Sequence record: PQ330092
Reading direction: 5' to 3' (one strand)
Length of the DNA stretch: 64,000 nt
Origin: Escherichia phage JP4
Position numbers and translations under genes: made by a program. Under the pieces are notes generated by a model, which worked only from the letters and a program-made list of their open reading frames with translations, made no database searches and was not told the origin of the DNA. The stretch's first letter is position 1; the number at the start of each line of letters is the position of its first letter. Positions 39,311 to 53,736 of this stretch are shown here, piece after piece.

Positions 39311-39381
39311 TGTATCCTCCAAATGTAAATCGTTATTATATTTAGGACAAAAAAATGCCAGTACAAAATACTGGCTTTATT

Positions 39382-40587
39382 TTATATACCACGACTGGGT
39401 ATTTTATATAATTGAAATTTAGTGTAATAATCAGAAACTGTTGTACCTGTCGCTTGTGGGATATAGCCACTCAAATAAACATCCCCTTGATTATCCATAT
39501 ACACATTTGTACATTCACTTGGACAGAATAACTCGATGCTGCCAACTTTAGGTGCATCAACTGGAACTACAAATGTAGTACTTGATGTGGTATTACCGCG
39601 ACCGAGCCTACCATATGTGTTTATACCACACATATAAAGTGAATTGTTAGTTTTAACCGTAAGCCCACCATATGTTAATGAATTTGATTTCATTTCCATA
39701 TTATCTGATATTGGTAGAGTGGAGATTGTAGATAATACTGTCCCTGATGAAGCGGCTGAACTATTACCCAAGTTACCTTCCGATTGAATCCCACTTGCAC
39801 GAACTGTATATGTATTATTCGTGTTGTGTTTAGATACAACCCATGATGCACTCCCACCAAGTTCATAATGTATAACAGTATTGTTGGCTAATGCACCCAT
39901 TTGTGTCCATACTCTAATGTTAGTTTCACCATTACTTATACCAAGTGAACCCCATGTGTTTTGACCAGTGACCCAAAGTGTTTTATCAATTTTCTGCACA
40001 ATCACTGCACTTGAACCTGTTTTTACACTATCCACATTCGTATTAATTGAAGTAAATGTTGATAATCTTGTGGTTGTGTTATTACCAAAATATCCCTGTG
40101 TATTGGCCCCCATTCCATATAGCGTACCATTTTGAAGTAAAACAAAAATACCCTCCCCTACAATTTGAATGTCCTTAATTTGCGACAATTGTGTTGCATT
40201 GAATACTGATGTAAAATATGAAGTACAATCAGTATAAGTACTGACAGTACTTAATCCTGTACCAATAGCTCTACCTACGCCACTGTAATAAAATTTATTA
40301 TCTTCGGTTTGGATTAAATTAAAAGAACCTTGGGCTGTTCTAAAACGTTTTACATTTTGGTATATTAAAGCCCACTCTTTTACTTTCGCATTAGGTACAC
40401 CATTTCCGAATCCATAGTTTTGTGAACTAGTTCCACCTATACCCATTAAGTCTCCATTTTTATATAATAGTAAGAGTGCTGTTGCTGGAATAACTGACGC
40501 ACTATAACCATTGTAAATAAAGATTTCTTTCACTTCAGGAACTTTCATTTTATTTGCGTATTTTATCATCCTTGGAAAAGGTAACAT
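39382..40587 (-). CDS. MLPF-family RCC1-like beta-propeller repeat protein
   Basis: MLPFPRMIKYAN..; recurring (Y/W)xxGxNxxGxLGxG repeats about every 50 aa; aggagg SD. Confidence 0.7.
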   Translation of the reverse strand: MLPFPRMIKYANKMKVPEVKEIFIYNGYSASVIPATALLLLYKNGDLMGIGGTSSQNYGFGNGVPNAKVKEWALIYQNVKRFRTAQGSFNLIQTEDNKFYYSGVGRAIGTGLSTVSTYTDCTSYFTSVFNATQLSQIKDIQIVGEGIFVLLQNGTLYGMGANTQGYFGNNTTTRLSTFTSINTNVDSVKTGSSAVIVQKIDKTLWVTGQNTWGSLGISNGETNIRVWTQMGALANNTVIHYELGGSASWVVSKHNTNNTYTVRASGIQSEGNLGNSSAASSGTVLSTISTLPISDNMEMKSNSLTYGGLTVKTNNSLYMCGINTYGRLGRGNTTSSTTFVVPVDAPKVGSIELFCPSECTNVYMDNQGDVYLSGYIPQATGTTVSDYYTKFQLYKIPSRGI

Positions 40588-40658
40588 AAAATCCTCCTTT
40601 ATTCATTATACTATATTTAATCAAAAAGAAAAGCCAGTGTTAAGTACTGGCATAAAAT

Positions 40659-41828
40659 CTAAGCAGAAGGCATATTCTTCATCTTAATAAATGAAAATTG
40701 TGTACCAGTATTTGTGGTTTGATCAGTAAAATATGAATTACTCCCAGCCCAGTACAATTCATTATTGACTATACAATATATAACAGAACTCGAACTCTGT
40801 GAATACACACGACTTATATTTGATTGTTCTACTCCAGTACTGAACTGAACTACCCCCAACTGTGAACTTGGTATTACATTAGTTGGTCTACCTAAACCGT
40901 TAACACCCGCACCACCACCACATGTATATACTCCAGTACTATCAGTTGATATATTAACATAACCATTTCCGGCATTTTCAAATAGTATTTCACTGGGAAC
41001 AACACCAAATCCTGTAAGATCTATTTTCCTGAATGTAGTATAAACCGTAGAACCGCCAACACCTCTTCCACCATAATCATTCGAACCAGCCATATAGATA
41101 CTATATCCAGAACTTCCTAAACATAATAACTGTACGTTGTCATATAATATTTGCATAGATATAACGTTATCAGGAATACTCAATACCGTAAAAGTAGTTA
41201 AAGAAGAACTTCCAATATTACTACCAACCGATGTTCCACATCTGTAGTACTTACCGCCTTTTATATAATGGAACGATGAACCGCCTAACTTATGTGCTCC
41301 TATTTCACTTACCCCAGTATCTATAAGAATGGGAGATACAACTTTGTTATTAACACCTAACTCAGATCTACTGTTCATACCGAACCCATATAAACGACCA
41401 TCTAACATCAATATTAGTGTACTACCTGACGTACCTGCTGACGTAAATTCTATATTCTTTATTTGCGACACGTCAATACCTACAAATAATGAAGTTACTT
41501 CAGTCCAGTTAACATATGAACCACTAGCCCCAAAATATCCACCCATGTATAGTCCGGCACAATATAACTTATTATCAACAGTCTTTATTAATGTACCGGA
41601 TACACACGCCCAAAAATCATCAACTTCATAGGGTACATGTACCCAACCACCTAATACATCACTAGCATCCCCTGTACCTAATTTATAGTTCGAACCAGAA
41701 CCACGCATGTACATATTCCCTGTACTATAAAGTAATCCGACATGTAATTGACTACCATCCAATTTCTTTATTTCAGGAAGAGTTGGTTTAATATTTCCGT
41801 ACTTTAACATTCTTCCAAAAGGTAACAT
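40659..41828 (-). CDS. MLPF-family RCC1-like beta-propeller repeat protein
   Basis: MLPFGRMLKYGNIKP..; propeller-type repeats; start directly after upstream stop (TAAGGAG overlap). Confidence 0.7.
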   Translation of the reverse strand: MLPFGRMLKYGNIKPTLPEIKKLDGSQLHVGLLYSTGNMYMRGSGSNYKLGTGDASDVLGGWVHVPYEVDDFWACVSGTLIKTVDNKLYCAGLYMGGYFGASGSYVNWTEVTSLFVGIDVSQIKNIEFTSAGTSGSTLILMLDGRLYGFGMNSRSELGVNNKVVSPILIDTGVSEIGAHKLGGSSFHYIKGGKYYRCGTSVGSNIGSSSLTTFTVLSIPDNVISMQILYDNVQLLCLGSSGYSIYMAGSNDYGGRGVGGSTVYTTFRKIDLTGFGVVPSEILFENAGNGYVNISTDSTGVYTCGGGAGVNGLGRPTNVIPSSQLGVVQFSTGVEQSNISRVYSQSSSSVIYCIVNNELYWAGSNSYFTDQTTNTGTQFSFIKMKNMPSA

Positions 41829-41838
41829 AATTTTCTCC

Positions 41839-52412: not shown

Positions 52413-52485
52413 AAATCCCTCCTTATTCATTATACTATATTTAATACAAATAAGAAAAGCCAGTATCAAGTACTGGCATATCAAA
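52413..52485 (-). promoter_or_regulatory. intergenic cassette: terminator hairpin, TATAAT box, SD (representative of 10)
   Basis: Minus strand: gccagtacttgatactggc hairpin + U-run, then ..taaatatagTATAATgaataAGGAGGGattt-ATG; similar cassettes at 39311-39381, 40588-40658, 43019-43099, 45472-45541, 46685-46755, 47494-47565, 48730-48801, 49993-50045, 51234-51302. Confidence 0.55.
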
Positions 52486-53634
52486 TCACTGCAAAAATGA
52501 CATATCGACTTCGGTATAATTAAGAACGTTCTGTCCAGCAATACCTCCCATTACTACAATTGAAGCCCCACAATAATATAACTTCGAAGTATCAGTAAGT
52601 ATAAGTGAACCAGATGGGGTGCGTACCAAATTACACGAAGTATTAAACGAAGTATATGAAGGGGTATAAGAGTACTGATTAATATTATTACCAACACCTA
52701 ATTGACCAGACGAGTTGCTTCCAGATGCATAAAGTACTTCATCACCTTTAACTATATGTGACGCCATGTTACCAACACAAGTATATAAACTATAAACTCC
52801 TGAACTCAATAATGTTGGAGTTTTGTATTGTATATCTGTAGATGAAGAAGTACCACCTGTGCCAAATTCGTTCCCGTATTGTGCACCGAACTGTTTACCA
52901 CATGCGTACAAATTATTATCTGATTTAATAAAAAATGTACTCTGATAACTTACATCAAAATCTATAACATCCGAAGCAATCATCGTCACCCCAGTAATAG
53001 AAGTTTGATTACCTGTACCTAACTGATAGTAATAGTTAAAACCACAACCCCATAAAGTATTATCTTCTTTTAGGTATATGTTACCAACTGCCTTTTTAAC
53101 CGAAGTTATAGTATCTACCCTTTTGAATGTGTTAAAAGAATTAATGTTTGTACCATCACCAAATGATGATAGGTTAGAGTTATTGTTAGCTCCACAACAA
53201 TACAATGTACCATCGTTTGTTATCAAATTTACCTTCATATCATTAAAACTACTCATGTATTTTATATCAGAAACATTAATACCACTGGATGTTATCCACG
53301 TAGTACATTCCGTCCACAAAGTTTTTCTATCAGTTACACCAGTGAATGCCTTCGTGTTACCAGTGATAAAAACTTTTCCAGTACCTTTCTCTTCATACAA
53401 TTGACAATCACTACTGTTATTTTCCAATAGAACTCGTTTAACATTCTCCGCACTAAGAATAAATTTACTCGACGCTACACCAGTTCCAGTACCCCAATTC
53501 GTCGCAGAAGATGCATACAACTTATCAGTATAAGTATCATGAAGATACATGGAATCACTGGAATATATTTTAAAACGTCCATCATCACCAGGGGCAATAT
53601 TCCCGTAATTCATCATTCTAACAAAAGGTAACAT
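52486..53634 (-). CDS. MLPF-family RCC1-like beta-propeller repeat protein
   Basis: Start at MLPFVRMMNYGNIAPG (ATG 53634); first gene of the minus-strand array. Confidence 0.7.
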   Translation of the reverse strand: MLPFVRMMNYGNIAPGDDGRFKIYSSDSMYLHDTYTDKLYASSATNWGTGTGVASSKFILSAENVKRVLLENNSSDCQLYEEKGTGKVFITGNTKAFTGVTDRKTLWTECTTWITSSGINVSDIKYMSSFNDMKVNLITNDGTLYCCGANNNSNLSSFGDGTNINSFNTFKRVDTITSVKKAVGNIYLKEDNTLWGCGFNYYYQLGTGNQTSITGVTMIASDVIDFDVSYQSTFFIKSDNNLYACGKQFGAQYGNEFGTGGTSSSTDIQYKTPTLLSSGVYSLYTCVGNMASHIVKGDEVLYASGSNSSGQLGVGNNINQYSYTPSYTSFNTSCNLVRTPSGSLILTDTSKLYYCGASIVVMGGIAGQNVLNYTEVDMSFLQ

Positions 53635-53682
53635 AAATCCCTCCTTATTCATTATATCATATTTACCCCATAAAGAAAACCC

Positions 53683-53711
53683 TTGACATCCTTTCAGTAC
53701 TGGTGTACTAT
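53683..53711 (+). promoter_or_regulatory. sigma70-type promoter for the small-protein array
   Basis: TTGACA-17-TACTAT about 25 nt upstream of ATG 53737; divergent from the MLPF array. Confidence 0.5.
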
Positions 53712-53736
53712 AGAAGGAATATAAGGAGAACTACAC

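Follow-up and report, generated by a model that had tools for sequence, protein, structure and literature searches.

Escherichia phage JP4 is represented here by a stretch of 64,000 nucleotides (nt) from sequence record PQ330092, which we call the window, and on the minus strand of this window (39152..53665) lies a tandem array of 12 genes and one decayed copy. The predicted products share the N-terminal tag MLPFxRMVKYGN, after which we refer to the genes as MLPF genes; eleven of them encode RCC1-like beta-propellers and one a glycine-rich protein, and they fall into 10 predicted transcription units. We describe the composite sequence that is repeated at the junctions of this array, the conservation of its parts among related phages, and the pattern in which the genes that it precedes have been exchanged, and we suggest that it may serve in both late transcription and recombination.

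Megablast searches with the array and its flanks found matches only among the Escherichia/Salmonella jumbo myoviruses of the genus Asteriusvirus (121Q, PBECO4, phAPEC6, G17, UB, and others), and by these matches the window is DNA of an Asteriusvirus, a jumbo coliphage of the 121Q/PBECO4 kind. Over 70-90% of their length the flanks of the array match several records at 97-99% identity, but the array itself is covered to only 19-58% in any one record, so that it forms a hypervariable island within an otherwise conserved genome. The records of the relatives label the MLPF genes either as "regulator of chromosome condensation" or as "putative DNA condensation protein". Our comparison included about 70 spacers from seven Asteriusvirus genomes, with phages Munch, GAP32, Serratia BF, and XaC1 representing other genera; in addition, the whole 121Q genome (348 kb) was assembled and the regions 5' of its structural genes were inspected for late promoter boxes.

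Organization of the MLPF Array

The 12 full genes, all on the minus strand, run from 53634 to 39382, with start codons at 53634, 52412, 51233, 49992, 48729, 47493, 46684, 45471, 44287, 43018, 41828, and 40587, and a 13th MLPF start at 39310 opens a decayed copy of 52 codons on the same strand. A first-pass annotation of the window, made from its letters alone, had proposed that ten of the junctions carry one and the same spacer of ~70 bp, in which a hairpin terminator, a TATAAT box, and a strong Shine-Dalgarno sequence (SD) make each gene an insulated cassette. The observation of a common spacer is confirmed and lies far beyond chance. A 20-mer, AAATATAGTATAATGAATAA, recurs exactly at nine junctions and with two mismatches at a tenth (53645-53664), against a chance expectation of 0.09; the stop-to-ATG distances (53-81 nt) are mostly 69-73 nt, much as had been described, and the SD, AAGGAGG(G), is indeed strong and ends 3-5 nt 5' of the ATG. 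The whole composite (hairpin, U-run, TAAATAtagTATAAT, and AAGGAGG(G)) is complete at only nine junctions: the first gene (53634) has no hairpin, and the junction before the decayed copy (39311..39375) keeps its hairpin (39375-39357) and its TAAATA but has TAACGA in place of TATAAT. Recent simple duplication was rejected as the source of this identity, since in amino acids (aa) the identity between gene bodies of the window is only 23-37%, with half of the pairs missed by BLASTP, and in DNA compared in register ~31%, yet they share the same 20-mer.

The first gene is preceded by a promoter and SD (53635..53665: TAAATA 53665-53660, TATAAT 53656-53651, AAGGAGGG 53646-53639). Full modules precede gene 2 (52413..52477: hairpin 52477-52459, U-run, TAAATA 52443-52438, TATAAT 52434-52429, SD 52424-52417), gene 3 (51234..51296: hairpin 51296-51278, TAAATA 51264-51259, TATAAT 51255-51250), gene 4 (49993..50057: hairpin 50057-50039 with a G-U closing pair), gene 5 (48730..48794), gene 6 (47494..47558), gene 7 (46685..46748), gene 8 (45472..45535), gene 10 (43019..43082: an 8-bp stem with a U-G pair, -16.2 kcal/mol), and gene 12 (40588..40651: a 6-bp stem, -8.6 kcal/mol). 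The module before gene 8 opens a two-gene unit, genes 8 and 9 being joined by a true 8-nt coupling junction (44288..44295) at which the TAG stop overlaps the SD AGGAGGG and neither hairpin nor promoter is present; this junction also occurs in G17 and UB. A second coupled junction without a spacer had been claimed at 41829-41838, and it is obtained only by reading gene 10 across a single inserted nucleotide (GGT[T]CAC, near 42255) that ends its open reading frame (ORF) at 42209, after 269 aa, and leaves 380 nt (41829..42208) in the +1 frame, up to a TAA (41839-41841) that overlaps the SD of gene 11. The same lesion is found in G17, UB, 121Q (gp238 plus gp237), and WPEC3. The cassette structure of the first-pass annotation is supported, in that each one- or two-gene unit is bracketed by a terminator-like hairpin and a promoter-like element that lacks a -35, with a consensus SD after it.

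Encoded Proteins

Eleven of the MLPF products have Pfam matches to RCC1, RCC1_2, or RLD (WD40_RLD). The AlphaFold (AF2) model of gene 3 is a seven-bladed propeller (pLDDT 80) for which Foldseek returned UVR8, RCC1, and the HERC RLDs (E 5e-22, TM 0.72-0.75), and on this evidence the eleven proteins are RCC1-like beta-propellers. Residues 1-13 of this model, with the conserved tag, form a low-confidence free tail that is predicted to be disordered. Gene 6 (46756..47493) carries the tag on a glycine-rich, non-RCC1 body that has no Pfam match and belongs to phrog_4474, a family with no function assigned; it is kept as a 245-aa cassette in UB, 121Q, G17, and fEgEco12. A gene annotated "PE-PGRS family" is present in the equivalent array of Serratia phage BF.

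Eight such proteins were detected by mass spectrometry in purified virions of phAPEC6 (PMC7247149), and GAP32 gp1 is likewise a virion protein by mass spectrometry (PMC5259590); by analogy with these homologues, the array consists of virion-protein genes. Among the phAPEC6 virion proteins is a "DNA condensation protein" of 30.06 kDa (gp007; PMC7247149), the size of the truncated gene 10 product, and its detection suggests that the truncated product may be made and incorporated. The phAPEC6 paper noted only tandem duplication and proposed a role in DNA condensation (PMC7247149), which is without direct support. These minus-strand virion genes sit amid many small plus-strand genes, many of which have sigma70-type promoters.

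Propeller genes with an MLPF or MIPF tag are also found, as isolated copies and as arrays, in other genera of jumbo phages (Munch, Serratia BF), and WPEC3 has a copy at 1193-2317. In Eneladusvirus and XaC1 the N-terminal tag reads MLPFPIIS or MFPIPIIS.

Probable Terminator Hairpins

The hairpin GCCAGTA-N5-TACTGGC occurs ten times in the array, where 0.04 copies would be expected, and a U-rich run follows each copy on the minus strand, with at least five T within 8 nt after every stem, so that the hairpin plus U-run of the earlier description stands. Folding energies range from -8.6 to -16.2 kcal/mol (z-scores against shuffled sequence, -3.0 to -5.5), and all ten hairpins are among the 21 sites returned by a terminator scan for which 6.5 were expected. 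They begin within ~20 nt of the stop codon, that of gene 3 lying inside the loop of the hairpin before gene 4. The stems are nearly invariant while the loops are hypervariable (more than ten sequences) and the U-runs differ in length even between neighbours, which is the pattern that selection on pairing would give. Compensatory pairs are seen in length variants (GTCAGTAC/GTACTGAC and ACCAGTAC/GTACTGGT) and in the stems of Munch (CTAGTAC/GTACTAG and ACAGTAC/GTACTGT), and the same hairpins are already marked as terminators in the GenBank records of G17 and Munch (ARNold, CPT pipeline). An Rfam search gave only a Thr_leader match (E = 0.8), far short of the gathering threshold, and no known RNA family. 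From this anatomy we infer that the hairpins act as intrinsic terminators, with which they share a G+C-containing stem of 6-8 bp, a loop of 3-7 nt, a U-rich tail that adjoins the stem, and a position near a stop codon; they differ in that the array stems are short and their U-runs interrupted (UUUUCUUAUUU).

An eleventh copy of the stem, with a compensatory G-C to C-G change (G>C/C>G) relative to the array stem, forms the hairpin (5286..5304, minus strand; GCCACTAC-att-GTAGTGGC, -15.6 kcal/mol) after a lone minus-strand gene at 5313..6467. This gene is the equivalent of 121Q gp155, a virion structural Ig-domain protein (phrog_10468, virion structural protein), and, as had been noticed in the first pass, it has a similar upstream element (6472..6504), which reads TAAATAcgtTATAAT and is followed by GGAGGG 4 nt before the ATG.

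The last array hairpin (39357-39375) scores as a terminator on the plus strand too (GCCAGTACAAAATACTGGC then TTTATTTTAT), and probably acts bidirectionally, between the array and the convergent plus-strand gene 38244-38906. As a separate observation, the MLPF stems resemble the 8-bp palindrome CAGTACTG split by a loop. This palindrome occurs 52 times in the window (for example at 14626, 59171, 60322, 60375, and 53695), where base composition predicts 0.7, and 194 times in 121Q, where 3.4 are expected; it is found in both coding and intergenic DNA, often as TTCAGTACTGAA and sometimes as the spacer/extended -10 of sigma70-like promoters. AGTACT is over-represented ~10-fold and GTAC ~3-fold in the window.

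Candidate Promoter Boxes and Sigma Factors

Between the hairpin and the SD lie two boxes. TATAAT, the box named in the first-pass annotation, is perfect in all 10 window copies and is lost in the decayed 13th copy; TAAATA lies 3 nt upstream of it and ends 25-26 nt before the ATG. An alignment of the spacers, which that annotation had put forward as a check, shows TAAATA to be invariant throughout the seven Asteriusvirus genomes, even in a second type of spacer, unlike the first in other respects, that occurs in WPEC3 and fEgEco12, while TATAAT has become TATAAC in five spacers of the relatives and TATAAA in one, always ahead of intact genes and with the loss of the -7 T that sigma70 needs. In Salmonella phage Munch, whose genes encode MIPFARIL.YGN, the hairpin, the T-run, and aatTAAATAta(g/a)TATAAT are kept between different flanks. 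The corresponding sequences are a hairpin, a T-run, and TAAATActaGATATT for GAP32 gp1, TAAATAcccTATATA and TAAATAtttTAAAAT in Serratia phage BF, and TAAATAtaaATTTAA in Xanthomonas phage XaC1. TAAATA is the only part kept across these four phages, among which TATAAT and the flanks diverge.

The major capsid, scaffold, sheath, tube, baseplate, and fibre genes of 121Q have the box nATAAATA 26-50 nt before their ATG, a range at whose low end, or one nt below it, the array box falls. In the entire 121Q genome nATAAATA occurs only 55 times on both strands, and 33 of these copies face an SD and an ORF; an A stands six nt after the canonical late box in 76% of cases. The composite TAAATA-N3-TATAA[TC] occurs 12 times against an expectation of 0.95, and all copies lie 5' of virion genes, namely ten MLPF genes, gp155, and the tail tube gene gp553. 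A terminator-like hairpin stands 9-15 nt ahead of six of the 33 canonical late promoters, which makes the hairpin-plus-promoter layout a habit of this genome.

The paper on phage CBB (PMC5259590) predicted an ATAAATA late motif for the Rak2-like phages and remarked on a gp55-like sigma besides a sigma70-like one. In 121Q the gp55-like factor is gp591, annotated as "sigma factor for late transcription", and its gene is located outside the window; of the two sigma genes only the sigma70-like one (11264..12229, plus strand, equivalent to 121Q gp167), with regions 2, 3, and 4, lies within it. Because TAAATA is the most deeply conserved box and six spacers lose the last T of TATAAT, the likely factor for the array promoters is the gp55-like late sigma, and the sigma70-like gene of the window probably does not supply it. 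A late-phage promoter is still, on the sequence evidence, the best reading of the element, given the missing -35 and the virion products; what probably needs revision is the choice of key box, TAAATA being the better candidate for the essential one. The position of the start is also better accommodated, since transcription beginning ~6 nt after TAAATA would produce a leader of 20-23 nt, whereas a start 7 nt after TATAAT puts the SD at the extreme 5' end. Leaders of 20-23 nt are typical of T4 late messages.

The alternative that TATAAT is a sigma70-family -10 hexamer working without a -35, and read either by host sigma70 or by the phage factor encoded at 11264-12229 from a start ~7 nt downstream, at the SD, is in our judgment unlikely. 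It accounts for the perfect TATAAT in ten of the ten window promoters and in Munch, for the A/T-rich upstream region, for the many sigma70-type promoters with TATAAT elsewhere in the window, and for the presence of a sigma70-like protein among the phage's own gene products. A sigma70 scan of the array spacers, however, found no -35 partner hexamer for TATAAT, as the first-pass annotation had maintained, and no extended -10 of the TGn kind; the three bases ahead of the hexamer are TAG, TAT, CAT, or TGA. Moreover, the six natural TATAAC and TATAAA spacers stand before intact genes, the distant genera keep TAAATA and not TATAAT, the leader would be only ~10 nt long, and the genes encode virion proteins, a class that T4-like phages transcribe from gp55-type promoters; the sigma70-like factor, for its part, possesses region 4, which implies recognition of a -35. 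The sequences lead us to regard the gp55-type reading as roughly twice as probable as the sigma70-type one, and both boxes may matter.

Other promoter assignments were tried and rejected. A -35 inside the hairpin loop (TTGATA) would be separated from TATAAT by 29 nt and would lie in a sequence that varies between loops. CTGGCA-N17-TATAGT reaches the scan threshold for a sigma70 promoter at one junction only (47544-47516), most of the others having the weaker CTGGCT. The exact 20-mer is not a genome-wide promoter, for in 121Q it is confined to the array; its eight other IMG/VR matches are each single on another contig.

Quite improbable is the view that there are no internal promoters at all, and that the array is transcribed from 53665 as one polycistronic late message in which the hairpins are RNA stabilizers or processing sites and the identity of the spacers stems from gene conversion. 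Such a view is compatible with the modest hairpins and interrupted U-runs, with the two junctions that function without a spacer, with an identity that reaches the synonymous sites of codons 2-4, as conversion would give, and with the finding that one gene type is preceded by differing spacer alleles across phages. But the variation is patterned, the loops and the U-run length being free while the stems and the 15-nt TAAATAnnnTATAAT are fixed. The box, moreover, is kept across genera whose spacers otherwise differ, it is lost in the decayed copy, and it also stands before unrelated single virion genes (gp155 and the tube gene gp553) that have no repeat partner for conversion.

Exchange of Cassettes between Phages

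The main comparative signal, to judge from the alignments, is one that the first-pass annotation missed: the spacers are joints of whole-cassette exchange between phages. The first 36 nt of the MLPF genes are 90% identical, and codons 2-4 (TTA CCT TTT) show no synonymous variation in 78 genes. The resulting module of ~110 nt is the only DNA common to paralogues that are otherwise ~30% identical. When the gene bodies of seven phages are clustered at 80% identity, 32 cassette types are obtained, whose order and number differ from phage to phage: the window has C A G B S E D T J F H I, UB has W A G B E D L J F H I, and PBECO4 has O A Q C B (decayed copy) D G I. Whether a spacer or a coupling junction precedes a given cassette type can differ between phages. 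We then located, again in seven phages, the megablast homology blocks (at least 400 nt and at least 88% identity) whose ends fall inside the array, and all 43 of their 43 ends lie at -68 to +79 nt of an MLPF ATG, although the genes are ~1.2 kb long. This clustering at start codons argues that the cassettes are exchanged whole, with the joints in the shared module.

As for the mechanism, we infer that homologous recombination is the favoured one, because 121Q encodes homologues of the T4-type recombination proteins UvsX, UvsY, UvsW, gp46/47, and endonuclease VII, and its complete record contains no gene annotated as an integrase or recombinase. The module, as the only stretch that the paralogues have in common, would furnish the homology for cassette recombination, and recombination at it would explain how so variable an array can lie between genomes that are otherwise 97-99% identical.

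It is very improbable that the palindromic hairpins are, instead of terminators or substrates of general recombination, the sites of a dedicated site-specific recombinase resembling integron attC: one hairpin palindrome per boundary of wholly swapped cassettes, an inner AGTAC/GTACT of the stem that is invariant even across genera, and the likeness of the stem to the genome-wide over-represented palindrome CAGTACTG would all suit such an enzyme, but none is annotated in 121Q, the cassettes have promoters of their own, the coding-strand U-run after all ten array stems (some of which also have a T-run on the other strand) fits a terminator, and the hairpin-less couplings switch partners as well (type A is coupled after O in PBECO4 and WPEC3 and follows a spacer in the window), a sign of crossovers within the common stretch of SD and N-terminal codons.

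A Proposed Terminator, Late Promoter, and Recombination Joint

We propose, with a probability of about 0.65, that the locus is a late-expressed array of virion-propeller genes in which the ~110-nt module combines a terminator, a T4-type late promoter, an SD, and the tag, and doubles as a recombination joint. In the direction of transcription the module would begin with an intrinsic-terminator hairpin (GCCAGTAC-loop-GTACTGGC plus U-run), followed ~15 nt on by a T4-type late promoter with the core TAAATA and 3 nt later by TATAAT, which would probably cover the start site; the consensus SD, the ATG, and the constant 12-codon tag would complete it. It would end the upstream transcript and restart late transcription, most likely by host core RNA polymerase carrying the phage gp55-like sigma, and each cassette would thus be expressed on its own, independent of its neighbours. 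At the homology that the module provides, the T4-like recombination machinery of the phage would insert, delete, and swap whole cassettes.

A number of considerations weigh against this proposal. The hairpins are modest (6-8 bp, most of them at -8.6 to -12.4 kcal/mol, with U-runs broken by C or A); termination at them may be partial, and with such short stems and interrupted U-runs some read-through is plausible, so that the word "insulated", used in the first-pass annotation, is an overstatement and describes an unproven property. Covariation within the Asteriusvirus stems amounts to one double change in 37 distinct sequences, too little variation to inform. The array box is (T/C/G)TAAATA, with T, C, or G rather than A at position 2 of the nATAAATA of the main late genes, and the A that is conserved six nt after the canonical boxes is a T in the array. 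Within Asteriusvirus and Munch the conservation of TATAAT is comparable to that of TAAATA, and a sigma70-type -10, or a need for both boxes, may be the proper description. Outside the array the 3-nt spacing of the boxes (5 sites) is not enriched over a 4-nt spacing (11 sites); a strict bipartite motif set by the 3-nt spacing was accordingly rejected, and no separate class of bipartite promoter is claimed for genes other than the MLPF genes, gp155, and the tube gene gp553. As to exchange, the ends of BLAST blocks necessarily extend into the shared module, inside which the crossover points are not resolved, and the identity of the spacers could be due in part to concerted evolution by gene conversion. 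Finally, a literature search for mapped transcripts or 5' ends in Asteriusvirus and in the Rak2-like phages close to it returned none; published RNA-seq of phage PA5oct reports only TATAATA and TTGAC motifs.

Neighbouring Promoters and Repeats

The divergent plus-strand gene that starts at 53738 has a sigma70-like promoter, TTGACA-N17-TACTAT, plus AAGGAG (53683-53740), and since this promoter sits back to back with that of the first MLPF gene, 53635-53737 can be viewed as a divergent early/late control region. The adjoining stretch 54100-58400 is another tandemly expanded small-gene region, in which short paralogous segments of several families (60-250 nt, 60-84% identity) surround small genes starting ...AGGTACTAATATG. 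Farther on (59144-63702, plus strand), an early-type promoter, AAAGTACTTGCAA-N17-TATAATGTTTTACAT, followed by a conserved 5'-leader hairpin (GAGAGCGGGAA...TTCCCGC), recurs in 6-8 copies before small genes, and a gene-poor stretch at 59538-59697 holds iteron-like degenerate repeats with an 8-bp period (GGATGGCT / AGACGGCT / AAACGGCT).

Relationship to Known Systems and Significance

The promoter early stem-loops (PeSLs) of T4-like phages are repeated composites of a terminator and an early promoter in hyperplastic regions, where they mediate modular shuffling, and they have been shown experimentally to terminate and promote transcription and to form mini-circles (Arbiol et al. 2010; Comeau et al. 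2014; PMC2839356, PMC4122927). By analogy, the MLPF module is a late-promoter counterpart of these cassettes, and our literature search found no paper that describes it. Each consists of a terminator stem-loop joined to a promoter, recurs as a short element between genes, and clusters in a hyperplastic region, where it flanks variable genes; when close relatives are compared, the element marks the limits of inserted, deleted, and replaced segments (here at all of the block ends), and the phage groups concerned have T4-type recombination genes. They also differ. The MLPF promoter lacks a -35 and is T4-late-like, whereas PeSLs have the sigma70 early consensus (-35, -10, and an AT-rich upstream region); the MLPF module reaches through the SD into 12 conserved codons; and the genes that it flanks encode paralogous virion proteins and are not ORFans.

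The window also has composites of the PeSL type, in nine copies on the plus strand between 12228 and 34560 (for example 31154-31228, 33099-33173, and 34513-34587), with the sequence AAAGGGTTGACTTCGGTCAGCCCTTTTTGCTATAAT...GAGG..ATG. They consist of a GC hairpin and U-run with TTGACT in the 5' arm and loop, 18 nt before TATAAT, in the form GGGTTGACTTCGGTCAGCCC-TTTTTGC-TATAAT, and their hairpins are annotated in G17 as terminators of -17 kcal/mol. The sigma70 early consensus is found in these plus-strand elements and not in the MLPF module.

The T4 late promoter (TATAAATA) depends on gp55, gp33, and gp45, and homologues of the latter two have been reported missing in Rak2-like phages (PMC5259590). 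The array promoters resemble it in having a single A/T box, without a -35, at 25-50 nt from the ATG of the virion gene that it precedes, in a phage that encodes a gp55-like sigma and whose structural genes use nATAAATA; they differ in that the array box TTAAATA matches six of the eight T4 positions and is followed by TATAAT at a fixed distance of 3 nt. Like an integron array, the locus strings together single-gene cassettes that can be exchanged, and a palindrome able to form a hairpin closes each of them. It is set apart from integrons by the lack of an annotated integrase (in 121Q), the absence of attC-like core sites from the hairpins, a separate promoter for each cassette, and an exchange that appears to be driven by homology. 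Modular phage receptor-binding and decoration proteins have a conserved N-terminal anchor and a variable distal domain. The MLPF proteins are similar in joining a short constant N-terminus to divergent bodies, one of them non-homologous and glycine-rich, and in being virion products, but their constant part is only ~12 residues long and is predicted to be disordered.

A terminator, a promoter, and an SD before each gene make a sound reading but an ordinary one for a phage. What the comparison of genomes adds is that the module delimits exchangeable cassettes of tagged propellers and that its core is conserved across several jumbo-phage genera. A bolder and tentative idea, to which we give rather less than an even chance, is that the array is a locus dedicated to diversification: its portable head, composed of the terminator, late promoter, and SD together with a docking tag of 12 residues, could be set on any body, and the phage population would reshuffle the propeller or other domains that are displayed on the virion or packed in it, possibly via excised circles like the PeSL mini-circles, with the tag docking all of them to one site and the arrangement being kept across Asteriusvirus, the Munch-like phages, Mimasvirus, and Eneladusvirus.

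For one late-gene class of Rak2/121Q-like jumbo phages, the analysis supplies a concrete candidate promoter motif, TAAATA-N3-TATAAT, with predicted start sites. It would extend the idea behind the PeSLs, that regulatory cassettes can be recombination joints, from the early ORFans of T4-like phages to the late virion genes of jumbo phages, and it recasts the genes for "DNA condensation proteins" as a hypervariable, cassette-exchanged family of tagged virion propellers. Such a family would be of relevance to host range, to virion decoration, and to phage engineering, in which the module could be used as a plug-in site for expression and display.

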